Positions 1,353 to 17,962 of a stretch of DNA of 32,902 nt are shown here, piece by piece (positions within the stretch are counted from its first letter, which is position 1; every line of letters starts with the position of its first letter). The translations under genes and the position numbers were made by a program. Under the pieces are notes generated by a model. The model ran no database searches, had not been told where the DNA came from, and saw nothing but the letters and a program-made list of their open reading frames with translations. Origin of the DNA: Candidatus Altimarinota bacterium (GTDB lineage Bacteria > Patescibacteriota > Gracilibacteria > BD1-5 > UBA2023); contig SSGK01000009.1 of the NCBI GenBank assembly GCA_008015855.1, positions 1 to 32,902 of the forward strand, given 5' to 3'.

Positions 1353-1458
1353 GAGGTAAATTAATTGGGTTTATTATAGATGTTTTTCTCGACTTGCAAA
1401 TTAAGAATCCTACCTAAAATAAGTCTATAGTTATGATATATCCTTTAAATTTCACCTC

Positions 1459-1956
1459 TTGAGAATATACATTACCGGACCTGCTGGATCAGGAAAATCA
1501 ACCATTGCAAAACAACTCTGAGAGTATTATTCCCTTCCTGTTACACACCTCGATACCCTTCTCTGGAAAGAAAATTGGATTGAAAATCCCGACTATAAAG
1601 AACTCCAAGGGGAAGTTCTTAAAAAAGAGTCTTGGATTATTGAATGACCCAGTTGTTCCATTATTAAGTCGATGGATATGGTTGATGCTATAATAATTCT
1701 CAATACAGGGTACATCGGAAATATGGGACGAATTCTAAAACGCACACTATTACACCGTTTTTGAAAAGAGAAACGAATAGGAATTAAAATTACGGAAAGA
1801 TGGAATATGTCTCTTTTTCTCAAGACTCTTACATGGAGAAAAAGGCAACTTCCCAGAATTCTCAAAAACATAGAATTACACGGGTTACAGGAAAAAACTT
1901 GTATTATCCATACGTCTAAAAATATGTTTCAAGAAGTACAAAGGTTTCTCGGATAA
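1459..1956 (+). CDS. P-loop NTPase/kinase, adenylate-kinase-like 'topology modulation protein' (FlaR) family
   Basis: Translation is (TTG)RIYITGPAGSGKSTIAKQLGEYYSLPVTHLDTLLWKENW...ESWIIE-G(TGA)-P..., the P-loop plus HLD..W..W..WIIDG pattern typical of FlaR-like kinases. There is no in-frame ATG between TAA 1420-1422 and the P-loop, so I call a TTG start at 1459. TAA stop at 1954-1956; 165 aa with three in-frame TGA. Confidence 0.75.
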
Positions 1957-1974
1957 AAAATCCAATAGATAACA

Positions 1975-2355
1975 CTAATCAATTCAGGCAATGTTGGAAT
2001 CACTCAATTCTAATCGTAAGATAGGGGTAACTTCATCTTCCTCTCAGCCTGAAAGATGGAAAGTGATAGACGGTACAAGGTCTGATTTTCATGACCAATA
2101 GCTCTCTTCAAATTTCTGAATTTCATGCATATAAAATATTGGATAGTCTCCAGAGAGAGTTTCTCGAAGAAAAATATTATCTGGAATATATCAAATCATT
2201 AATAATGTCTCAATTGCCTTTGAATGTTTGAGGAGTAATTCACATGTGTATTTCCAAATCTCTGATTGAACATATTCATCTCGGACTATTCCATATCTTT
2301 CTATACCAACAATATGAAGAATATTCTCAAGAAATTGATTATATATGAGTGACAT
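1975..2355 (-). CDS. hypothetical protein, 126 aa, no recognised domain
   Basis: ATG at 2353-2355 is the first start after in-frame TAA far upstream; TAG stop at 1975-1977; four in-frame TGA read as Gly. Product MSLIYNQFLENILHIVGIERYGIVRDEYVQSEIWKYTCELLL...YPIFYMHEIQKFEESYWSG... Absent from the standard-code track because TGA fragments it. Confidence 0.55.
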
Positions 2356-2411: not shown

Positions 2412-2442
2412 AAAATCCCCCCAGATATTTTGGGGAGATTTT
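2412..2442 (-). terminator. hairpin with flanking A/T runs directly after giant gene B
   Basis: Plus strand reads aaaatcCCCC-cagatatttt-GGGGagatttttt. On the minus strand the stem follows TAA 2444-2446 and is followed by a T-rich tract. Confidence 0.5.
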
Positions 2443-2443
2443 T

Positions 2444-5272
2444 TTATGCAATATGAGAGAGTCATACCTTGGAATAGAGTTCTTTTCGCATTTCAGGGGA
2501 AACGATTTTTTCATACTGTGCGAGGTATTTTTTCATGTATGATTCAGCCTTTCATGTATAATTGATTGTTCCATCAAATCCGAGATCTTTGAGGGCTGTT
2601 TTCCATTCTTCAATTCATCGAACATCTAAGAGTGATTCCCTTCCTGTATCATCTCGAGTAACATCTACTAATGCTGTCACTTTGCTTCCATCAAATGAAA
2701 TATCTCATGCATAACTTCCACTCGTGCGACCTGGTCAAAGAAGCATCTCAGAGAGCATCTTAATCACTTTCTCTTTTGACTCACTCGGAAGCGATGCAAT
2801 TTTCTCTTTTGCTTTTGCAGTATTAATTCCACCATCCGCTTGAACAATTCCCTCTCCTTTTAATTCATTAAAAATCTTCTCATCTTCTTGTAACTTATAC
2901 ACTCAGAATCCTATCGCGAGTGCTGTGGCAAAAGATGCTCCGAATCGAACATTCTGAGAAAGTGCGGCCCGACCAACATTGAGTGTACCAATTTCTGCCA
3001 TTCCTCAAATATTCCGTGCCCCAATATACGCATGACGAGCAAATCGAATTGTATCGAGTCAGAATTTTCCAGCATCAATCACGGGTTTAGCTATCCATTC
3101 AGCAAAAGCCACTGCCTTATTCGGTGCTCGCAACACCTTTGATAATTCATAGATACCAATAGCCCCTACCGCTCAACCTGCAACAATATATCCGGGATGT
3201 TTTGGGATATATCCATGCTCAACATCCATTCATTCATAAATAAGAATACTTGCACCATATAATGGATTCATCATGGCAATATCCTTTGCAAGTGTTGTGA
3301 GTTTATTATTTTTTGTTGATGCTACATCCGCAATAACAATAGTAAATCAAAGATTTCTAAATAAACCCTCAAAAGCACTTGGAGTTTCTCGTGTTATTCG
3401 TTGAATAATCTCCTTTGCATCATCTCAATCTTTTGCTAAGATAGTAATATTTGCTTTTTCAAATTCTGGAATAATCTTTGATTGTTTAAATCCCAATGCA
3501 ACATTCCTCAAATGCTTTGCAAGAGTCCAATTTTCCTTGATTATACCTCATAAGGAAGTACGAATTGATCTTGCCTCTTCTGCTACATTACGAAACATGA
3601 GATCTGTATCATCCATTCATTTAAATGCTCATTTCAATGTTTTTCCAACTCTATCACCCCATCACATGGAAGCAGAAGAAGAGTCTGCATTCTCAATAAT
3701 ACGAACCATTCATTCCTTCCACTTCATTCCACCTGATTTCTCCATCTCTACAAGAGCCGATTTAATAATTCAAGATTCAAAAGTACTTCCAGAATATTGT
3801 GTTTGTAAAGAAGTTAATCCTTTTTTAATCGTATCGAAAGAATCATCTGGAGAATTTTTAATAACATCGACAATACGCATTTTTACCTCGATTTCTCATA
3901 CCACTTTTCTTAAATCATCCGCAAATCACTTCGTTTGAGCACTTCATTCTGGTATTTCTTTCATATAATCGAGCAATATATTTGCTGACTTATTAAATTG
4001 TCAGGTTGCTCAAAAATATTGAGATTGTACTCATGGAACAAGAGTTCATTTTTCCCAGTATAAGGGTGCGAGAGCAATTGTAGAAAGTAATTTTGATGCC
4101 TTCCCTGCAAGAAACAGAGGAATTGCCATATGATGATATACTATCGGGAAAAATGTTGCTTTCAATTCTCCATTTTCCATAAGCTCTTCAAATCAGTATT
4201 CACCAATAAGATTTATAGCCTCTTTTGGTCATTTGGTAACCAATGTAAGAGCTGAACGGAGACCAAATTCTATCATTAATTTTGATCACTCTTTGATCTT
4301 TGCAGTAATAGCCTCCGGGGGTATTACTCACTCCTTAATAAGATCTTTTAAGAAAAGGATTCAATCTGTTCATGAAGCAAGTAAAACTTCCATAACATTC
4401 CATTCTTTCTTATCTGAGACATTCGATAATACTTTCCCCATTCATTCTTCAATTTTACCTCCATAATTTTTCCAAACTTTATTAAAAGCTGCAAGTTGTA
4501 TTACGGGATCCTTGATAAAACCTGATTTTACTAAATTATCCCAAGTACCTTTTTGAAGTTTCTGAACCTCATCTGACACCCTCTCTTTCAACTGTTCCGC
4601 TTTTTTTGCGGCTGTTTCAACTGGATTGGTAGAAGCAGTTTTGCATTGCTTTCCATCCTTTTTAAGAAACTTTGAAACATCAAAGAATTTATCGAGACCC
4701 AGCGCTGCAAAGAGTGCACCTATCATCTCGAGGAATCATTTCCAGAATTTCCCAAGTCCCCATTCATCTAATTTCTCCCCCACTTTTCCTGCATGTTCTT
4801 GAACATCGATTGCAACTGCCTGAACAACGGTTCCTGCTTTTTTCGCAAGTTTTCCAGCATCAACCGTTCCATCTGGAATTCAAAGCTTCTCAGCAATTTG
4901 CTCTCCTGCTTGAAGAATTTCCTTTCCCCCTGGAACATTCGTCTTTACGCTATCAAGTGCTTTCTCTGCTTGAGCGGCTATATCCGATGATTTCAGCTTC
5001 CCAAGAATACTTGATTGCAAAGAAGAATCAGCGCCATTCAAAACCTTCGGAAGTTCCGCATAGAGTGATTTCATATCCTTAAAAACATCCAGTTTTGCAG
5101 AGGTTCGAGAGGTAATGTATTCTCGAGTACGTTGATAGAGAACTTCAAATTCCTCGGGAGATAATTTTGGTGCCACTTCTTCACGAAGCATTTTCTCAAG
5201 GTCCGAAGTAACTCCCGAGAAAGTTTCTGGAGTTTTGTAGTAAGGAGATGGGAGGAAAGAATTCTTATTCAT
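2444..5272 (-). CDS. giant hypothetical protein B, 942 aa, Gly/Ala-rich hydrophobic segments, no recognised domain
   Basis: Track fragments 4880..5272 and 4442..4726 and about 2 kb with no listed minus-strand ORF fuse into one frame under table 25; every TGA coordinate is congruent mod 3. I walked all codons 2444-5272 and met no TAA or TAG. ATG at 5270-5272 is preceded by in-frame TAA 5282-5284; TAA stop at 2444-2446 is followed directly by a hairpin. About 34 in-frame TGA by hand count. Confidence 0.8.
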
Positions 5273-5281
5273 ACAAATTAA

Positions 5282-8200
5282 TTATTTTTTACTGTTATAG
5301 TGGTTTGTAAGGTATGCATCAACTTTTCCAGCATATTTTCAGAAAAATCAAGAAATATCCGCTTCAGTGATAGCCTTTGCTGGAACATCCGTCATTCGTT
5401 CCATAGTGTCCATCTGATCAAGAAAGAATCACTTGAATGGCCCAAAAAGGGTACAAATAATGAGATTTTGTACAGGATCTGAGAAGTCCATCTGATCTGG
5501 ATTTCTATAGAATGCTTCCATTCCCGTCATACCAGCTGCCATAGCTCCACGACGATTCCAAACGATATCCTTTGCCATACCACGTAATAATGCTCCGGTT
5601 GTTTGTGAAAAGCCATGACTGTGCTTCCATGCAGATATCGTTGCCTGTCAAAAATCCTGAATCGTCATTCATGCTACAAAATTTCAAAGCTTATTCTTAT
5701 AGTATCTCTCACCTGTTATCCCCATTGCTTCAAGTGTTTTCATTCCTTTTATTTTTTCAAATGCTGTATTGAAAACATTCGTTCATTTTCATTCCTTTGG
5801 CGCTGGCGTGGTTTCATGTGATTTCGTTGGGGTAACCTTCTCAGCCAATTCAACTTCTCCATTCTTTCATTTCTGAATAACGGTTTCAGGAGCTGCTTCT
5901 GGAGTTGTTTGTTTTGAAGTTTTTGAAGTTCCTACTTTACGCATAGCAGCATTTAAAAGAGCAAGAACGAATCATTGAAAAATTTGCTCACTCGTCCATT
6001 CTCCTCCACCCAAAGTAACCTGAAGACCTCCACCCACTATTCCAAATGCGGCTGTATCTAATACAATTCTTGTTGGTTCTTTGAGAAGCAGCTTTTGAGC
6101 AAGATTCCCCTCTGCGCTTCAGAACTTACTATAGATTCCATTCAACCCCTTAAAGGCAGCAGCAAATGCCATAGATTCGAGCCATCATTGCATACTGTAC
6201 CCTTCTGTCCAATTTCCATATTCAATTTGTGATTTTGCAGCACCGTATCCAGCATAGAAAGCGGTTCCCTCGATTGCTGTGGCACCAACAAAACCAGCTC
6301 ATTTTCCTGCAACCGATGCAATACGAGCCGTTCGAGATACCTGTCATACCATTTCGGTTCAACGTCCAAGGAGAGAAGTGAGCTTACCGATGCGTGATGC
6401 ACGAGCAGCATTTACTGCCCAAAATCCAGCAGAACCAGTGAATGCACCGGCAGCAATCGCAACAACCTCCATCGCTACCATTTCACATCAAAATTTCCAC
6501 CAATCAGCATTTTTATCAGCCACATGATTCCATCCAATTCCTTCGATATCCTTAAATAATTCTAGTTCCTTTGATTCTGGAATTTTATTTTTCTTTACCT
6601 CATCATATACATACTCATATTTCAAAGCAAGCAGGTTCGATTTCTCGATGAAACTCTTTTTCATTTGCTCAACAATAGTATCTCTTGATCGTTTATCTCC
6701 TGATTGAATTAAAGTGTCGGCTGTTGTTTGAAATTGGGTTGTATACGTAGTTACGGATAATTTTGCAACCTCTTCTCTCTTCTCCTTAAGACGCTCTTTT
6801 GCCTTGCTTGAAAGAATCTCATCTGATATCTTTGATTCATCCCATGCACTGCTCTTCCATGTGTGGAAGGTATCTTGAATCTTTCCATGCATTTTATTTC
6901 CACCAATAAATCCATCAATGAGCCGGTCGGAAATAAGAGCATATCCCTCTAGTTCGTTTTTTATATAGAGGTAGAGTTCTTGTTTATTTCTTGCTTCAAT
7001 ATATTCAATCAGTTTTGGCGCATCCTTGCTTCCAGTTTCTTTAATGAGTGATTGAAGAGCTGGAATCATTTCCTCTTGTTTTAATTTGCCTGATTCAATC
7101 GATTGAATAAATGCATCGAGTTTTTTATTCCAATCTTCTGACATATCCTTGGAGGCAAATGCCTGAAGGAGAAGAAGGTAATCATTTGATTTCTCTGAAA
7201 TATTTTTATAGCGCTCAATTGCCTTCTGAACACTCGAAGGAAAATCTTTGTATTCAATTGGAAGTGGTTTTCCATGAGAGCCAATAATATAATAACGACC
7301 ATCTCGGAAAGATGCGACCGTATGAACCGATTGCTGCTCTGTTTCTTGTTTTCCTGTTAACTCATTCCATTTTCTTTCTGCTGTCGCAATCCCTGATCCA
7401 ATAGCGGCTGTTACAGGAGCGGCTGCATCCTTGGCAGATTGAACTGCTGAATCGATTTTACCTGGTTCCTTTTTTTCACTCTTTTCCATCGGTATTTCTT
7501 TTGGTGCCTCATACTTCATGCCAAGAACTTCATCGAGATTTTTTGCTGTTTTTTTCACCTCTAAGAGCAATCTGAGGAGATACTCAACATTTTCTTTTCC
7601 ATACTTTTCAAGAAATTCATTTCATGATACTTTTTTACCATCTTCTGTAACAAGAAAATCACCCCCAAAGAGAGAAGAGAGGGTAAGTTCATCTTTTCCA
7701 TCAAGTGCTTTTTGTATATCTTCCACTCAAAATCTTCGAAAATTTTCTGATCGAATAAGGTGAGAATATATTTGAGAGAGCTGTTCTCCATCTTTCTTAT
7801 CAGATTCAACTTTCGCTCTATGCGTCGCAATAAAACCATCCGTAAATCACTTCACATTTTCTGGAATACTCTTTGGATCGAGGAGATGTAAAAATGCCTG
7901 TTTGGTTTCATTTTCGTTGGATTCTTGAGATGTTCATCCCTTGGATTCATTAAAACGTTTCATAAAATTCTTTCCGAATTCAGTATTCTTCAGTCAGAGA
8001 TATCCAAGTCCCGCTGCGAGTGTAATTCAAAATCCTTTCCAACCACCAAATACAACACCAAGAACGAGTGCTGCAAGAAAGACAAGGAACTCCCCTCATG
8101 CAAATGAATTTCCTGATTCAGGAGGGCGCATGTGAAATGTCTTTGCTAACTCAATTTGTTTATTCAAAGGAAAAATACCATCTACCACAGCTTGTGCCTG

Positions 8201-9256
8201 TTTTATATCTTGATTGTATCCCTTTACAAAATCCTTTACATCCGCCATATTCTTATAGGCACCATTTAGGTAAGCCCAAAGAAGCATTTGATCCGAGAGA
8301 AGGATATTAGAAGATGGAGCTGTTAAACGATCTCGAAGCGTATCTTTTGTGAGATTATATTTTTTAAAAAGGACGGTTTCCACATATTGAGCCACGTTTG
8401 CATCACCTACTAATTCTCATTTTTCATTTAATTGGGATGCAAGAAAAGTATCTCGCTCAGAAGAGTTTAGAAGAAGTGCTTTTTTGATATGCGTGAGAGA
8501 AATATCTTCTATCGCAAATTTCGCACGGAAATACTCATGAAGAGAGGAGACAGAGTCTTTTTGTTGTTCAGTATCGCCTTTCCCCTTATATTGAATCGTA
8601 AAATCATTTTCTCATGAAAACATGAAAAAATACCCCTGACTCGAAAGAATATTGAGAAATGAGTTTACCGTTAATTGCTTAAATGATTCACTCTTATCTC
8701 GACTAAATTCGAGAGCATCATCAAACTCCATTTTCCAATGAGCAATAGAAAAATTTCCATCGGAAAGTCGCTTTGTTTTTTCAGCCAGTTGAGAAGCAAA
8801 AGCATTTACCTGCTCTTTTACGATTGGCTTCTTTTCTTCGGATACAACTCATTGGGATGGTGCTACTTCAGATGATGGTTTTACGTCAACCTTTTGAGAT
8901 GGTGGAGTAATTTGAGATTTTAATTCTGCTCGCTTGAGTTGAGATTTAGCAACAGAATTCATAATATCATTTTGATGCTGTGCCTGCATCAAAGCATACT
9001 TGGATACCATTTCTTCCCAACGGGTAAAAAGTGGCTCAAGTGCACCAGTATAATCTGGACGCTGACGTTCTTGTCGTATCCATTCAGCATCTGCATCAAT
9101 ACGAGCCTTAATTGATTCAATAGGCGTATCGGTCGTAAATTTGTTTGACCAATCACGGTTTGTCTCATCTGGTTTTTCAATCTTTAAAATATTCACCGCA
9201 AGAGTATCTGCCGTGGTTTCTACTGTTCATTTATTAGCACCGCTCAAAAGTGACAT
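5282..9256 (-). CDS. giant hypothetical protein A, 1324 aa, internal hydrophobic hairpin clusters, no recognised domain
   Basis: Track fragments 8849..9196, 8096..8395 and 6488..7570 share one frame. I checked the connecting stretches 7571-8095, 8396-8848 and 5285-6487 codon by codon and they contain only TGA, no TAA or TAG. ATG at 9254-9256 is preceded by in-frame TAG 9293-9295; TAA stop at 5282-5284, 9 nt before the next start. About 27 in-frame TGA. Confidence 0.8.
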
Positions 9257-9355
9257 AAGGAAAAAATAAAGAATATCAGTTTCTCCTCTATGCTATCACA
9301 AGTTCTAGAAATCTACAAATTTTCGAAGATATATAGCATAAATTTTGCATCCATT

Positions 9356-9383
9356 ATATGGAATAGGTTGCAAATGCAAATTA
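9356..9383 (-). promoter_or_regulatory. candidate promoter for the giant-gene pair
   Basis: Minus strand TATAAT (9361-9356) with TTGCAT/TTTGCA 15-16 nt upstream (9383-9377). It lies downstream of terminator 9423..9450 and about 100 nt upstream of ATG 9256. Confidence 0.3.
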
Positions 9384-9422
9384 TTCGATATAAAAATAAT
9401 ATGGCAAGTCTCCATTCTCTAT

Positions 9423-12750: not shown

Positions 12751-12777
12751 AAAAGATGAGTAAAAAGCGAATAAAAA

Positions 12778-13116
12778 TTAGAGTGCAAGTCCTGCTTCAC
12801 GAGCTGCATCAGCAAGTGCCTTAACACGTCCGTGAAAAAGACATCCTCCTCGATCAAATACACATTCCTTTACTCCAAGCTCAAGTGCCTTCTTGGCAAT
12901 TTCTTGACCAACAAGAGTAGCACGTTCAGACTTTGTTCCCTTTGCATCGATATCGTTTGCAGAGCAGAGAGTCTTACCTGAAAGATCATCAATAAGTTGT
13001 ACACTTATATGAAGATTAGAACGAAATACACTGAGGCGAGGCTTTGTAGCTGTACCTTCGATGCGTGCACGAACACGAATTGCACGACGATTTCTTTTAG
13101 CGAATTTTTCCAACAT
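12778..13116 (-). CDS. rplR: 50S ribosomal protein L18
   Basis: ...[35 protein letters not shown]...[25 protein letters not shown]. Operon position. Confidence 0.95.
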
Positions 13117-13149
13117 ACGGGAGAAAGTGAGAATAAAATTAAGAAGAGA

Positions 13150-13701
13150 TTATTTTCCAGCGGTCTTACCTGCCTTGCGACGTACATGTTCACCTACATA
13201 GCGAATACCCTTTCCTTTGTATGGCTCAGGCTTCTTAAGAGAGCGAATATATGCAGCAAAATATCCAATAAGTTGTTTATCATGAGATGATACATGAATC
13301 TTATTCTTATCATCCTTATCTGCTTCAATTGTAATTCCAGCAGGAGCATCAACATTAACCTTGTGTGAAAAACCAAGAGAAAGCTCAAGTTTTGTAGGAC
13401 TCTTAATATCAAACTTATAACCTACACCAATAATTTCAAGAGACTTTTTGTATCCTTCAGATACCCCCTTAACATTGTTAGCGAGACAAGCTCGTGTAAG
13501 ACCCCAAAAAGCCTTTTGTTGCTTATCATCTTGATTTGCAATAGATACTTTAAGAGTATTACCTTCTTCAATTACCGTCACTCCTTCATAAATAGGAAAT
13601 GAAAGGGATCCTTTTGGACCATTAACAATCACCTCAGTTTGAGTGATTTGCGCGGTTACACCTGACGGGAGAGTAACGGGGAGTTTTCCGATTCGAGACA
13701 T
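13150..13701 (-). CDS. rplF: 50S ribosomal protein L6
   Basis: MSRIGKLPVTLPSGVTAQI...GPKGSLSF... plus C-terminal KPEPYKGKGIRYVGEHVRRKAGK. Operon position. Confidence 0.95.
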   Translation of the reverse strand: MSRIGKLPVTLPSGVTAQITQTEVIVNGPKGSLSFPIYEGVTVIEEGNTLKVSIANQDDKQQKAFWGLTRACLANNVKGVSEGYKKSLEIIGVGYKFDIKSPTKLELSLGFSHKVNVDAPAGITIEADKDDKNKIHVSSHDKQLIGYFAAYIRSLKKPEPYKGKGIRYVGEHVRRKAGKTAGK

Positions 13702-13725
13702 AGTAGTATAAACGAAAAATTAATG

Positions 13726-14112
13726 CTAGTAAACTTCACACAAGAGTTCACCTCCAACACCGAGGGTATGAGCTTCATAACCTGTAACTACACCCTTAGG
13801 AGTAGAAAGGATATAAATACCAAAACCGTTACGAGATTTTTTAATCTCAGTAGCTTTTATATACATGCGCTGACCTGGTCGGCTAATACGACGGAACGAT
13901 GGAACGTACTTAGTCTTGCGAACATCTTGAAGAGTAATCACGAAAGAACGCTTATCCTCACTTACAGTGTAATCGATGATATACTGATTCTTCTTGAGAA
14001 TGCGGAGAATTTGTTCTTTAAGACGAGAAAATGGAGCTTCAACAGTTTGAAGACGAGCAAGATATCCATTACGAATCCGAGTAAGAAGATCTGCGATTGG
14101 ATCGATTATCAT
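13726..14112 (-). CDS. rpsH: 30S ribosomal protein S8
   Basis: MIIDPIADLLTRIRNGYLA...GFGIYILSTPKGVVTGYEAHTLGVGGELLCEVY. Confidence 0.95.
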   Translation of the reverse strand: MIIDPIADLLTRIRNGYLARLQTVEAPFSRLKEQILRILKKNQYIIDYTVSEDKRSFVITLQDVRKTKYVPSFRRISRPGQRMYIKATEIKKSRNGFGIYILSTPKGVVTGYEAHTLGVGGELLCEVY

Positions 14113-14140
14113 AATCTATAATGAAAAACAGAAGTAAAAA

Positions 14141-14365
14141 TTACCAGCTAGATTTACGTACACCCATGAGTTCACCGGCATTTGCCTTCTCACGAACACA
14201 TATACGACAGAGATCAAATTTTCCCATATAACCCTGAGGACGTCCACAAAGTGAACAACGATGATAGAGTCGAGTAGAAAACTGTATCTTCTTTCCGAGA
14301 GCATGGTCACGCGCTGCTTTTTCGAGCGCATTCTGACATTTATTAACAATGGATTTACGTGCCAT
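14141..14365 (-). CDS. rpsN: 30S ribosomal protein S14 (zinc-ribbon type, 74 aa)
   Basis: MARKSIVNK...[24 protein letters not shown]...SSW shows the CxxC...CxxC pair and terminal W typical of S14/S14Z. Sits between rplE and rpsH. Confidence 0.9.
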
Positions 14366-14377
14366 AAAATGAAAAAA

Positions 14378-14917
14378 TTAACGAGAGAAAGGAAAACCGA
14401 GCTTATCAAGGAGAGCCTTAGAATGATCTTTACTCTGAGTCTTGAATTTGATTGTGATTTGAAGTCCATGTGGCTTAACTACGTCGAGCTGAGGTACTTC
14501 TGGGAAAATTGTATGTTCCTTAATACCAAAGTTGAAGTTTCCAGCATCATCGAATGAGCGAGAAGATATTCCACGGAAGTCACGAACACGAGGAAGAATG
14601 ATTGCAATAAGCTTCTCAAGGAAGTGAAACATTCTGTCTCCACGAAGTGTAACCATCATACCAACTGGCATATCCTTACGGAGCTTAAAGTTAGAGATAG
14701 CTTTACGTGAGAGAGCAACTCGTGGAAGTTGTCCAGAAATAAGTGCGAGATCATTTTTGAGACTTGAAAAGTCTTTATTTCCAGCAGCAACATAGGTACC
14801 GATACCCATATTGAGAACAATTTTCTCAATACGTGGAAGCTCCATTGGATTTTCAATTCCGAGCTCTTTCTGAATTTCCGGAAGGATTTTCTTTATGTAA
14901 TTTTCTTTGAATGACAT
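14378..14917 (-). CDS. rplE: 50S ribosomal protein L5
   Basis: ...NPMELPRIEKIVLNMGIG...MVTLRGDRMFHFLEKLI...RDFRG...FDDAGNFNFGIKEHTIFPE. Confidence 0.95.
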   Translation of the reverse strand: MSFKENYIKKILPEIQKELGIENPMELPRIEKIVLNMGIGTYVAAGNKDFSSLKNDLALISGQLPRVALSRKAISNFKLRKDMPVGMMVTLRGDRMFHFLEKLIAIILPRVRDFRGISSRSFDDAGNFNFGIKEHTIFPEVPQLDVVKPHGLQITIKFKTQSKDHSKALLDKLGFPFSR

Positions 14918-14941
14918 AATCTCTTGGTGAGAATAAATAAA

Positions 14942-15244
14942 TTAGAGAACTGAACCTGACTTCTTTGCAAAACGAACTTTCTTTCCGTTTTCAATCTTGT
15001 ATCCAACACGAGTTGGTTCACCAGTCTTTGGATCAGCAAGCATAACATTTGAAACATCAATAGGTTTTTCAAATTTTACGATTTGACCAGGAGTAGCACC
15101 TTGCTTTTTAACGTGTTTTGTAACAATATTAACACCTTCAACAATCACCTTGTTCTCAGAAGGAAAAGCACGGAGCACTTTTGCTTTCTTTCCCTTATCC
15201 TTTCCGGCAATAATTACAACGGTATCTTCAGTGTGAATTTTCAT
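14942..15244 (-). CDS. rplX: 50S ribosomal protein L24
   Basis: [27 protein letters not shown] (KOW motif)...[12 protein letters not shown]. Confidence 0.93.
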
Positions 15245-15265
15245 AAAATAGAGAAGATAATAAAA

Positions 15266-15634
15266 CTAAACAACTTCTGGAGCAAGGGAGATAATCTTTT
15301 GATATCCACGACCCTTGAGCTCACGGAATACAGGTCCAAAAATACGAGTTCCCTTTGGTTCCTTCTTGTCGTCAATAATAACACAAGCGTTATCATCAGA
15401 ACGAACGTAAGTTCCATCATCACGTCGAATAGCATTAGCAGTACGAACGATCACTGCTTTACATACTGACTTCTTCTTGATGTTTCCGTTTGGAAGAGCC
15501 TTCTTAACAGAAACTACGATGATGTCACCAACTGAAGCGTAACGACGCTTAGATCCTCAAAGAACTTTAATACAGAGTACTTCTTTCGCTCCTGTATTGT
15601 CCACGACTACGAGTCTGCTTTCTGTTTGAATCAT
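15266..15634 (-). CDS. rplN: 50S ribosomal protein L14
   Basis: Track ORF 15266..15454 is only the C-terminal half. Reading TGA 15557-15559 as Gly gives [46 protein letters not shown]..., 122 aa. The TGA falls on the invariant VLGGS glycine. Confidence 0.95.
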
Positions 15635-15651
15635 ATACGAGTATAAGAAAA

Positions 15652-16175: not shown

Positions 16176-16592
16176 TTAGAAATCAGTTTTTGAAAGAAGA
16201 ATCTTCGTTTTAACTGGGAGCTTGTAAGAAGCAAGCGTAAAAGCTTCCCTTGCAACTTCTGGGGTAACATCTTTGAGTTCAAAAATGATACGTCCAGGTT
16301 TTACAGGAGCTCGGTACATTTCAACACTTCCCTTTCCTCATCCCATTGGAACTTCAAGAGGTTTCTTCGTAAAAGGTTTGTCTGGGAAAATACGAATCCA
16401 CATCTGACCTCCCTTTTTAAGGAAACGGACGATCGCTTTACGTGCTGATTCAATCTGACGAGAAGTAATATAACCTGCTTCAGTCGTCTTGATAGCGTAA
16501 TCACCGAAGTTGATTTCAGAACCGCGAGTAGCAATTCCCTTGATCACACCACGATGCGCCTTGCGATATTTCGTCTTATTTGGTTGTAACAT
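16176..16592 (-). CDS. rplP: 50S ribosomal protein L16
   Basis: [19 protein letters not shown]...PLEVPMG-G(TGA 16338-16340)[21 protein letters not shown]...; 138 aa; TAA at 16176-16178. The track shows only the N-terminal 84 aa. Confidence 0.94.
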
Positions 16593-16639
16593 GGAAAAAT
16601 GTGTTAAGAATTATAGAGATAATTTGAAAAAATCAAATT

Positions 16640-17278
16640 TTATTTTTTAAATACATCACCTTTGTATACCCAAACCTTGATACCAACTGTACCAGCGACT
16701 GTTTCAGCGCGTTCTGTAGCGTAATCAATGTCAGCACGAATAGTTTGAGCAGGAATAGCACCATCCTTGTAAGTCTCACGACGAGCAATTTCAGCACCAT
16801 TAAGACGTCCACCAAGTTTTACCTTGATACCAAGACCACCCTTTTCAAGAGTTTTTCCCATTGCATTCTTAATAACACGACGGTAAGGCATCTTTTTTTC
16901 AATTTGGCGAGCAATAGAATCTGCAACGATTGAAGCAGAGAGTTCAGGTTTGCGAACCTCCTTAATTTCAATAGTGAAAACATATCCAGGAAAACGCTTT
17001 CCAAGGTTATCCTTGAGAAGATTTACGTTTTCATCATTCGTTCCAAGAGCAAGTGCTGTTCGTGAAGTATACACAACAATATTAACAGCATTTCCGCTTG
17101 AATGATTAATGAAGAGGTTTCCAACAGGAACTCCCTTAAAGTGTTTAGTAACAAATTTACGTATCTGAAGATCATCAGCTACATAAGATGCATATTGCTT
17201 CTTATCAAAATATCAGCTTGTTCTCCAAGTTTTGATATATCCGATACGGAATGCAAGAGGACTTACTTTGTGTCACAT
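16640..17278 (-). CDS. rpsC: 30S ribosomal protein S3
   Basis: Starts M-G(TGA 17273-17275)-HKVSPLAFRIGYIKTWRTS-G(TGA)-YF..., matching the universal MGQKV.P...R start of S3. Continues into track ORF 16640..17074; 212 aa. Confidence 0.94.
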
Positions 17279-17308
17279 AATCGTATGAAAGGAAAAATTA
17301 AAAAAGAA

Positions 17309-17635
17309 TTATTTTACACCAAGAGCAACATTCACATTTGAAGTTCTCTTAAGGATACGATGTGCTCGTCCTCGAGAAATTGGATTGTGACGACGATATA
17401 CAACACCCTGTGTAACAACAACAGAACCGATACGAAGATTTTCAAGTTCTTGACCATCATTATGAGTTGCATTAGCAACTGCACTGGCAATAACCTTGTA
17501 GAGAATGTCTGCACCCTTCTTCGGCATAAAGCGAAGTGTATCAAGTGCTTGTTTTGCATCCATTTCACGCACGATGTAAGCGATTACATTGAGCTTCTTA
17601 GGTGAGATGCGTACGTTACTAACGATTGCTTTCAT
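17309..17635 (-). CDS. rplV: 50S ribosomal protein L22
   Basis: MKAIVSNVRISPKKLNVIAYIVREMDAKQALDTLRFMPKKGA...RRHNPISRGRAHRILKRTSNV. Confidence 0.94.
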   Translation of the reverse strand: MKAIVSNVRISPKKLNVIAYIVREMDAKQALDTLRFMPKKGADILYKVIASAVANATHNDGQELENLRIGSVVVTQGVVYRRHNPISRGRAHRILKRTSNVNVALGVK

Positions 17636-17662
17636 AAAAATCGAGAAATAGAGAAATGAAAA

Positions 17663-17926
17663 TTATTTATTACCTGAGTGACCAGTGAAACGACGAGTGA
17701 AAGAGAATTCACCGAGTTTGTGACCAACCATATCTTCTGTTACAAAAACTGGAACATGTTGTTTTCCGTTATGAACACCAAATGTGTGACCAACGAATTC
17801 AGGTGCAACAGTACAATCGCGAGCCCATGTTTTAAGAACGGTTTTCTTACCACTCTCATTGAGAGTTTGAACCTTCTTCATGAGACGAACATCTATATAT
17901 GGTCATTTCTTGAGACTACGAGTCAT
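17663..17926 (-). CDS. rpsS: 30S ribosomal protein S19
   Basis: MTRSLKK-G(TGA 17903-17905)[11 protein letters not shown]...[32 protein letters not shown]. The TGA is on the invariant SLKKGP glycine; 87 aa. Confidence 0.95.
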
Positions 17927-17962
17927 AGTGTGAGAAGTTAGAAGTGTAGAATTAAAGGAGAA

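Follow-up and report, generated by a model that had tools for sequence, protein, structure and literature searches.

A TGA-recoded gene pair from a Gracilibacteria-type bacterium and the previously undescribed protein family of its second gene

The stretch of DNA analyzed here as a whole (the window) comprises 32,902 nucleotides from Candidatus Altimarinota bacterium (contig SSGK01000009.1, assembly GCA_008015855.1), and is a 32.9-kb chromosomal contig of low G+C content (GC; 35-41%) in which TGA is a sense codon. The subject of this report is a gene termed B and its upstream neighbor, termed A; both genes and the elements flanking them are on the reverse strand, and their coordinates are given for that strand. 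Gene B occupies 2444-5272 (frame 5272-2447, 942 codons, with a TAA stop at 2446-2444). Under translation table 11 only short open reading frames (ORFs) are found across this region, and long genes appear once TGA is read through. Gene A (5282-9256; 1324 amino acids, 27 in-frame TGA codons) lies directly upstream, with a gap of 9 nt between its end and the ATG of B. A terminator-like hairpin (9451-9429) ends the dnaQ-like gene that precedes A, two overlapping sigma-70-like promoter matches (9353-9407, each with 10 of 12 consensus positions) are located closely past this hairpin and upstream of A, and a second hairpin resembling an intrinsic terminator, with a 12-bp stem and a T-run (2412-2442), begins 2 nt past the B stop codon. 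Given the flanking hairpins, the promoter-like sites and the 9-nt gap, A and B look, by these consensus scans, like a two-gene transcription unit with B in second place.

The reading of TGA in B is of some consequence, since 34 such codons are present in frame alongside 57 GGN and 11 TGG codons. When B is compared with a divergent allele (L005, vide infra), TGA is exchanged with GGN in eight cases and with TGG in none. In an alignment with two standard-code homologues, the TGA positions of B are occupied by glycine in 28% and by tryptophan in 1% of the aligned cells, the GGN codons behave like the TGA codons (glycine in 29%), and the TGG positions pair with aromatic residues. A preliminary description of the sequence had chosen glycine over tryptophan, and the allele exchanges and the homologue alignment both bear this out: as judged from them, TGA encodes glycine, not tryptophan, in this organism. 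Public databases store B either with tryptophan at all 34 TGA codons (P0001) or as table-11 fragments (e.g. P0003 and P0007), and it is partly for this reason that B appears to be an orphan. All of the B peptides quoted in the preliminary description are located in the 942-codon frame. Its two labels for the protein fared less well; at 942 residues B is large, not giant, and about ten full-length relatives exist, so that it is no orphan.

Comparison with four contigs of the same species (98-99% nucleotide identity) gives ratios of nonsynonymous to synonymous substitution (dN/dS) of 0.10 for B and 0.08 for A. Because of this low ratio, and because nine full-length collinear homologues are found, B is regarded as a genuine gene under purifying selection, beyond what a chance open frame would display.

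The L005 contig, which comes from another sample (Logan SRR14932528), is mostly 95-100% identical to the window at the nucleotide level, with a few 100-nt stretches at about 90%, and this high identity covers the last ~200 codons of B and the 2 kb that follow. On the 5' side of a sharp in-frame breakpoint, placed approximately at 3050-3125 (B codons ~716-741), the L005 B gene is only 43-80% identical in nucleotides, and 35-65% of residues differ (window 3050-4400, B codons ~290-740, compared with L005:20-1975). The pattern would fit either a within-species recombinant or dimorphic allele or an assembly chimera.

When 1.84 billion cluster representatives were searched exhaustively with HMMER, 30 proteins related to B were detected at E ≤1e-3, of which 14 have E ≤1e-10 and five E ≤1e-30. 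Nine of the 30 are full-length (926-977 amino acids), with end-to-end collinearity to B at 15-25% identity and hmmsearch expectation values from 1e-64 to 1e-4. Where their sources are named, they are "Candidatus Gracilibacteria bacterium", "Patescibacteria group bacterium" and "uncultured bacterium (gcode 4)". Homologues are present in low-GC genomes that are recoded and also in two GC-rich ones (L012, GC 0.55, and L013, GC 0.65), where the A-like and B-like genes are without TGA. The B-like gene is found in one copy per locus by local hidden Markov model (HMM) search. A word-indexed protein search, run three times, returned same-species copies only, even with distant members in the query alignment, probably because low-complexity words crowd its candidate list. 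Pattern scans of GTDB genome contigs and JGI metagenome contigs returned a known Gracilibacteria metagenome-assembled genome or nothing, and no relative of B was found in IMG/VR contigs by the same scan, in which degenerate back-translation cannot represent TGA as glycine and for which the family offers few conserved stretches.

The positions that are invariant or nearly so across the family are F263, W267, F307, L311, V312, I317, P318, A321, K371, W406, E460, P631, F638, P670, E680 and P730. B shares with its relatives both full-length collinearity and the motifs F-x3-W, G-[VI]-I-P-x-E-A, P631/F638, N-P670 and E680, and on this evidence it belongs to a family that had not been described before and that is confined to Gracilibacteria-like bacteria of the candidate phyla radiation. 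No constellation of residues of a catalytic-site type is conserved across the family alignment, and because invariance is confined to Phe, Leu, Pro and Trp residues together with two Glu, B is probably not an enzyme but a structural protein.

One high-GC member is unusual in its codon use. In L018 (GCA_049301335.1, GC 0.60), the A-like (2442-6062) and B-like (6137-8239) genes carry exactly one in-frame TGA each. Homology continues without a break across both codons, at which gene callers cut the two genes in pieces, and the TGA of the B-like gene pairs with a family-conserved glycine (G390 of B). This suggests either sparse use of TGA as glycine or recent pseudogenization in a high-GC lineage.

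The family alignment divides B into four regions. Residues 1-250 (4523-5272) form a variable, helical N-terminal region rich in Lys, Glu and Ala. The N-terminus (MNKNSFLPSPYYKTPETF) is polar and without a hydrophobic h-region, and as read from the sequences no signal peptide, lipobox or h-region is present in any of the ten aligned family members, all of which have polar N-termini; the lack of a signal peptide noted in the preliminary description thus extends to the whole family. Within this region, residues 176-197 (FWKGFLEMIGALFAALGLDKFF; 4682-4747) form a weakly hydrophobic or amphipathic helix whose position is kept family-wide, and which is not of transmembrane grade. It contains the short element previously described near 4690-4740 (FLEMIGALFAALGLDKFF, residues 180-197, nt 4682-4735). 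A conserved central domain, all-helical, follows at residues ~255-625 (3398-4510), with the family motifs F263-x3-W267, L311, G-[VI]-I-P318-x-E-A, H380, W406 and E460. Residues ~630-795 (2888-3385) comprise five to seven Gly/Ala-rich, weakly hydrophobic helices, in which P631, F638, N669-P670, E680 and P730 are conserved and GxxxG/AxxxA-type spacings occur (e.g. G699-x3-G703 and A782-x3-A786-x3-G790). The Gly/Ala-rich cluster reported at about 2900-3200 was found here, as HPGYIVAGGAVGAIGIYEL ... FGASFATALAIGFGVYKL (residues 692-795, nt 2888-3199). Finally, the C-terminal domain (residues ~800-942; 2447-2875) is again conserved and is marked by the motif L-K-x-x-G-[IF]-[IVF]-x-x-D-G ... LP-x-E-x-K. 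No internal repeats were detected in B or in the core domain of A.

Structure prediction with AlphaFold2 (AF2) was run on a correctly translated homologue (P0005) rather than on B itself, with a multiple alignment of 13 sequences. The model is almost all helical, its C-terminal domain contains a short beta-hairpin, and its overall confidence is low (mean predicted local distance difference test score, pLDDT, 55; predicted template modeling score 0.38). The best values (pLDDT 70-85) are found in blocks of the central domain, and the region matching B 1-250 falls below 50. A separate model of the last 318 residues of P0005 (pLDDT 58.6) gives the first four hydrophobic helices a confidence of 76-82 and lacks the hairpin. 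The preliminary description had proposed that the C-terminal 130 residues are a separate small, beta-rich domain. A separate domain is plausible and conserved family-wide; its predicted structure is mixed alpha/beta with one short hairpin, rather than beta-rich, in models whose confidence over this domain is low (pLDDT 50-72).

Whether the Gly/Ala-rich helices could span a membrane was assessed with 19-residue windows, taking as transmembrane-grade a Kyte-Doolittle average of at least 1.6 or a value of at most 5 on a Hessa-type biological scale summed over the 19 residues. B has no window that reaches the Kyte-Doolittle threshold (maximum 1.47), and none that reaches the Hessa-type one. Membrane proteins encoded in the same window (SecY, the ABC transporter, the CHASE2 cyclase and the PBP2 anchor) have many windows with Hessa-type sums between -3.5 and 2. 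The family-averaged Kyte-Doolittle profile peaks at 1.1-1.4 at B residues 382-406, 632-654, 660-679 and 695-715, with a further peak near 775-795 in individual members, and single homologues reach 1.5-1.9. Homologues contain between zero and a handful of weak hydrophobic windows, which are located at non-equivalent positions. The hydrophobic helices of B average 1.5 to 3 charged residues each, and the 58 residues that separate helix 5 from helix 8 sum to a net charge of +3.8, which would be consistent with a cytoplasmic location. Because these helices are far less hydrophobic than transmembrane helices from the same organism, they are best described as marginally hydrophobic helices with small-xxx-small spacings and not as classical transmembrane segments, and B is probably no polytopic membrane protein of the classical type. 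The suggestion that A and B form one membrane assembly is accordingly not borne out for B, which has no transmembrane-grade segment of the kind found in the control proteins of the window.

Gene A provides the sole transmembrane-grade segment of the pair. It lies in residues 385-426 (7979-8104), where the segment (FAGGEFLVFLAALVLGVVF) is followed by a weaker hydrophobic stretch and then a Lys/Arg-rich stretch; residues 385-403 have a Kyte-Doolittle average of 2.31 and a Hessa-type sum of 0.5, within the range of the SecY and ABC transporter segments. Residues 385-426 may therefore form a membrane hairpin. A second feature of A, a Gly/Ala-rich domain of about 260 amino acids (residues ~871-1136; 5849-6646), defines the A-like family and is referred to here as the A-core. 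It was found in L006 (two genes), L007, L010, L014, L015, L017 and L018 with expectation values of 1e-20 to 1e-102 (local jackhmmer and hmmsearch). A-core proteins are multi-copy, and in some genomes at least two large paralogues occur within 20 kb, flanking or near the single B-like gene (L006:5819-8944, L007:19910-22934 and L014:2489-6418 are examples). Peptidoglycan-binding motifs were suspected in two A-like proteins and were not confirmed by Pfam.

The association of A-like with B-like genes was surveyed in ten independent loci for which upstream sequence is available, the window included. An A-core gene is present within 10 kb of the B-like gene in nine of them. It is directly upstream on the same strand in five (the window, L010, L015, L017 and L018), upstream with one or two genes between in two (L006 and L014), and elsewhere within 10 kb in two (L007 and L013); at the remaining locus (L008) no A-core gene was detected near the B-like gene. 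L013 is counted by way of the L018 A-like protein (L013_1555, BLAST 3e-11), and hhalign comparisons of the A-core with the single sequences L007_up1 and L013_1555 were not significant. The loci that contain both genes span 35-65% GC and both genetic codes. The genes directly upstream of B-like genes always encode large proteins without a Pfam match or signal peptide, and several of these carry Gly-rich hydrophobic segments. The preliminary description had proposed A and B as partners and had made its case depend on whether A-like and B-like genes co-occur and on whether B matches a characterized family. Co-occurrence was found, in nine of ten loci within 10 kb and in a shared unit in the window, and no characterized family matched B; partnership is thus supported by gene neighborhood.

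The wider neighbors of B-like genes are housekeeping genes, including secY, ribosomal protein genes and dnaQ in the window, and dnaJ, recA and recG at other loci. Two smaller genes recur near the B-like genes. One, located between the A-like and B-like genes in L006:2134-2865 and L007:9290-9985, encodes a protein of 231-243 amino acids with a signal- or lipoprotein-like N-terminus and the trypsin-type motifs TA[KN]HC ... GG[MS]SG[GS]AV; its Pfam matches to Trypsin and Trypsin_2 are below threshold (E 0.004-0.006). The other is a conserved gene of 235-282 codons without a Pfam match, with the motifs CNSLSM ... DSDIDLF ... LGVRRHG, which lies on the strand opposite the B-like gene, converges on it and slightly overlaps its 3' end (L008:12850-13557, L010:12843-13574, L012:3068-3916 and L014:12862-13710). 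It was considered as a possible immunity protein and dropped, as it has no obvious hydrophobic stretch, looks cytoplasmic and is absent downstream of B in the window.

Long genes elsewhere in the window include a ribosomal-protein/secY operon and genes for a CHASE2 adenylate cyclase, an ABC transporter and a PBP2-like protein, together with that for the RNase T/DnaQ-like exonuclease (Pfam 9e-19). Past the B terminator there is an ORF of 126 amino acids (1975-2355, reverse strand) without a family match, which is found at the same position in five related contigs (L001-L005), and a convergent gene (1423-1953, forward strand) encodes a 177-residue P-loop protein (GPAGSGKS) with weak, sub-threshold AAA_18 and cytidylate-kinase-like matches. 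Open frames of 370-500 codons run antisense to the ribosomal-protein operon (12775-15643 and 16532-17938, forward strand), because TGA is not a stop codon. Their translations are of low complexity and look non-coding, and ORF picking by length prefers them to the true genes.

No test that was run tied B to any described family or fold, and no mechanism is demonstrated thereby. Neither A nor B has anything above threshold in Pfam, NCBIfam, PHROGs or PADLOC, the last of which includes no anti-phage defense model that matches either protein. Pfam searches with 13 B-family members yielded only scattered chance matches in single members, and searches of PDB sequences with B and the family profile gave nothing better than E 0.0076. 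The one candidate considered among these, the COMMD1 N-terminal domain (PF17221), scored 20.5 bits against a cut-off of 23.4, appeared in one of the 13 members and accounts for the phmmer PDB match at E 0.0076; it was rejected as a chance match. Foldseek comparisons of two models with PDB, and comparisons with BFVD, gave no significant match. The closest PDB neighbors, all non-significant, are XaxA, AhlB, SmhB and YaxA (E ≥0.33, TM-score ≤0.2, and ≤0.17 for the ClyA family), those in BFVD are tape-measure proteins (E ≥0.01, TM-score ~0.1), and the model of the C-terminal part draws non-significant matches to the transmembrane domains of channels. As far as such models can be read, these are generic resemblances between long helices, which may offer leads for a mode of action and are not evidence of membership. 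The literature on Gracilibacteria and Vampirococcus describes many large unannotated membrane or surface proteins and does not mention a B-like family (PMC6851277, PMC8080830).

Taken together, these observations lead us to favor, tentatively and at rather less than even confidence, a role for B as a structural component, without enzymatic activity, of a complex formed with A close to the membrane on its cytoplasmic side. A and B appear to be co-transcribed, and B would be one subunit in a complex that also contains A-like proteins and sits at the cytoplasmic face of the cell membrane, where A residues 385-426 would be the one true anchor in the bilayer. In both proteins the Gly/Ala-rich helices, rather than being classical membrane-spanning segments, would serve in helix-helix packing via small-xxx-small contacts or in shallow membrane association. 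The cytoplasmic side is favored because A and B are both without a signal peptide, because positive charge follows the transmembrane-grade segment of A, which may be a hairpin, and because B has a basic loop. The analysis shows that the gene is real, how its code is read, to which family it belongs, its operon-like layout and conserved neighborhood, and that B lacks transmembrane-grade segments and similarity to known families; we infer the physical interaction of A and B, their subcellular location and the structural role. A functional parallel may be drawn with the cytoskeletal proteins HMW1, HMW2 and HMW3 of the Mycoplasma attachment organelle. These proteins of a reduced bacterium that attaches to its host are large, non-enzymatic and confined to one lineage, evolve rapidly and have no signal peptide. 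They are believed to act as membrane-proximal scaffolds and are Pro-rich or coiled-coil proteins, not Gly/Ala-rich like B, and the likeness would be one of function only, with no sequence relationship expected.

Several observations weigh against this proposal. No A-core protein was detected at L008, and two further loci have their A-like gene outside the gene string of B. The strong transmembrane segment of A is not conserved in the other A-like proteins examined, so that the proposed anchor may exist in this species only. Some loci have as neighbors a trypsin-like protease of lipoprotein type and proteins with LysM or PG_binding_1 domains, which point instead to an extracytoplasmic process. 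The Hessa-type scale as applied here is simple and unweighted, and is not a trained topology predictor; the models of the B family are of low confidence (mean pLDDT 55 and 59), and do not establish a fold.

The protease and peptidoglycan-binding neighbors lend some weight to a different view, in which an A/B-like pair is a conditionally inserting, two-component alpha-helical pore or translocon that an episymbiotic or predatory bacterium of the candidate phyla radiation directs against a host or prey membrane. The proteins would be soluble when made, and their weakly hydrophobic Gly/Ala-rich helices would insert on contact, as in the XaxAB and YaxAB toxins or the membrane-inserting segments of phage tape-measure proteins. 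In the ClyA-family alpha-pore-forming toxins (XaxAB, YaxAB, AhlABC, SmhABC and Hbl/Nhe), all-helical proteins encoded by adjacent genes act jointly, as A and B might; XaxAB, YaxAB and ClyA likewise have no signal peptide, and the family hides marginally transmembrane-like hydrophobic helices in a soluble bundle, much as the helices of A and B are marginally hydrophobic and resemble glycine zippers. The rapid evolution of the B family (15-25% identity), the mosaic allele within the species, the secreted-protease and peptidoglycan-binding neighbors at some loci, and the predatory or epibiotic habit and large surface proteins known from relatives of the lineage (PMC8080830) would also suit a pore. 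However, the Foldseek matches to XaxA, AhlB, SmhB, YaxA and tape-measure proteins that might seem to favor it are far from significant and are of a kind that any long helical model draws, no export route is evident, and short-term dN/dS is low. B is two to three times longer than ClyA-family subunits, A and B are not visibly alike in structure, and no Pfam toxin domain was found, whether of the HlyE/HBL type among the 13 members or otherwise. Colicin-type pore-forming proteins (PF01024) and glycine-zipper effectors resemble B in being long helical proteins without a signal peptide that have a Gly/Ala-rich hydrophobic helical hairpin among amphipathic helices near the C-terminus, and differ from it in that B has no Pfam match to PF01024 at E ≤1 and no small immunity-like membrane protein downstream. 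On balance a pore or translocon of this kind seems unlikely, though it is the main rival to the complex that we favor.

A further possibility involves no membrane. B might act as a scaffold in the cytoplasm, fully soluble and with its Gly/Ala-rich helices buried as the core of a helical bundle, and the adjacency of A would then reflect a shared non-membrane process. The absence of transmembrane-grade segments and of a signal peptide, the 1.5 to 3 charges carried on average by each hydrophobic helix, and the packing of P0005 helices 641-721 as a bundle, with the best local confidence, by AF2 all agree with this. It is harder to reconcile with a hydrophobic block whose location and nature stay the same in genomes from 35 to 65% GC, with the real transmembrane segment of partner A, and with the similar Gly-rich hydrophobic segments that neighboring partner proteins repeatedly carry, and we consider a purely soluble role distinctly unlikely.

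The converse possibility, that B is a constitutive polytopic membrane protein with four to six spans within residues 370-795 and an intramembrane assembly with A, which takes the single membrane assembly of the preliminary description literally, draws on the conserved positions of the family-averaged Kyte-Doolittle peaks (1.1-1.4), on the homologues that reach 1.5-1.9, and on the non-significant channel matches of the C-terminal model. B nevertheless fails both hydrophobicity tests, which all of the control membrane proteins pass, the stronger windows of homologues are at non-equivalent positions, and the positive loop between helices 5 and 8 conflicts with a four-span topology with the N-terminus inside; a polytopic B is highly improbable.

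The preliminary description also suggested that A and B may be distant paralogues, in which case they would share an ancestral Gly/Ala-rich helical module. An HMM-HMM comparison (hhalign) of the A-core with the B-family profile gave a probability of 9.8% (score 33.4, P = 0.0033, 73 columns), with the match confined to a Gly/Ala-rich stretch (A 932-1011 and B 720-796). Reversed sequences scored 23.3 and 21.9 at the same stretch and column shuffles scored 10-16, so that the signal exceeds the former by about 10 and the latter by about 20; because the reversed controls reproduce about two thirds of the score, it is mostly local composition, with a marginal excess. The best BLASTP match between A and B (E 0.065) pairs another part of A, residues 354-440 around the transmembrane segment and outside the A-core, with B 728-806, a stretch that shares residues with the hhalign region of B. 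Against this, the A-core HMM misses the B family (E 0.2-2; B itself E 0.21, 2 bits), the B-family profile misses full-length A, other A-like proteins and all other neighbor families (probability ≤1.4%), and the architectures are otherwise unrelated, with no internal repeats in either protein. The proposed paralogy is thus unsupported, and common ancestry of A and B is very doubtful indeed.

Finally, an origin of B as a mobile-element remnant, such as a prophage tape-measure-like protein, is effectively refuted: phage tail tape-measure proteins are, like B, long, nearly all helical, without a signal peptide and endowed with Gly/Ala-rich, weakly hydrophobic segments, and they are the top BFVD matches, but those matches are non-significant (TM-score ~0.1), B has no sequence or profile similarity to them in PHROGs or phage records, tblastn against 50,697 phage records and 72,556 plasmids returned nothing that matches B, no relative appeared in the pattern scan of IMG/VR contigs, and B is a single-copy chromosomal gene with housekeeping neighbors and no tail module.

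Gracilibacteria and their relatives are uncultured and genome-reduced, and are believed to be epibionts or predators of other bacteria. The large proteins peculiar to these lineages mostly lack annotation, and the database entries of many are wrongly translated. From this background, an apparent orphan now emerges as a defined family with a conserved partner gene and a conserved residue set. A bolder and clearly improbable reading is that the A/B pair is a new two-component, membrane-inserting apparatus by which Gracilibacteria-type episymbionts or predators attach to or perforate the host membrane; if so, it would imply export without a signal peptide, the Gly/Ala-rich helices would be insertion elements, and the divergent within-species B allele would reflect host-driven diversification. 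The practical value lies in a testable gene pair and its conserved residues, with an uncertain biological pay-off. Because it has been kept across 35-65% GC and both genetic codes, the A-B pair is a concrete candidate for a lineage-specific complex of the envelope or of host interaction.

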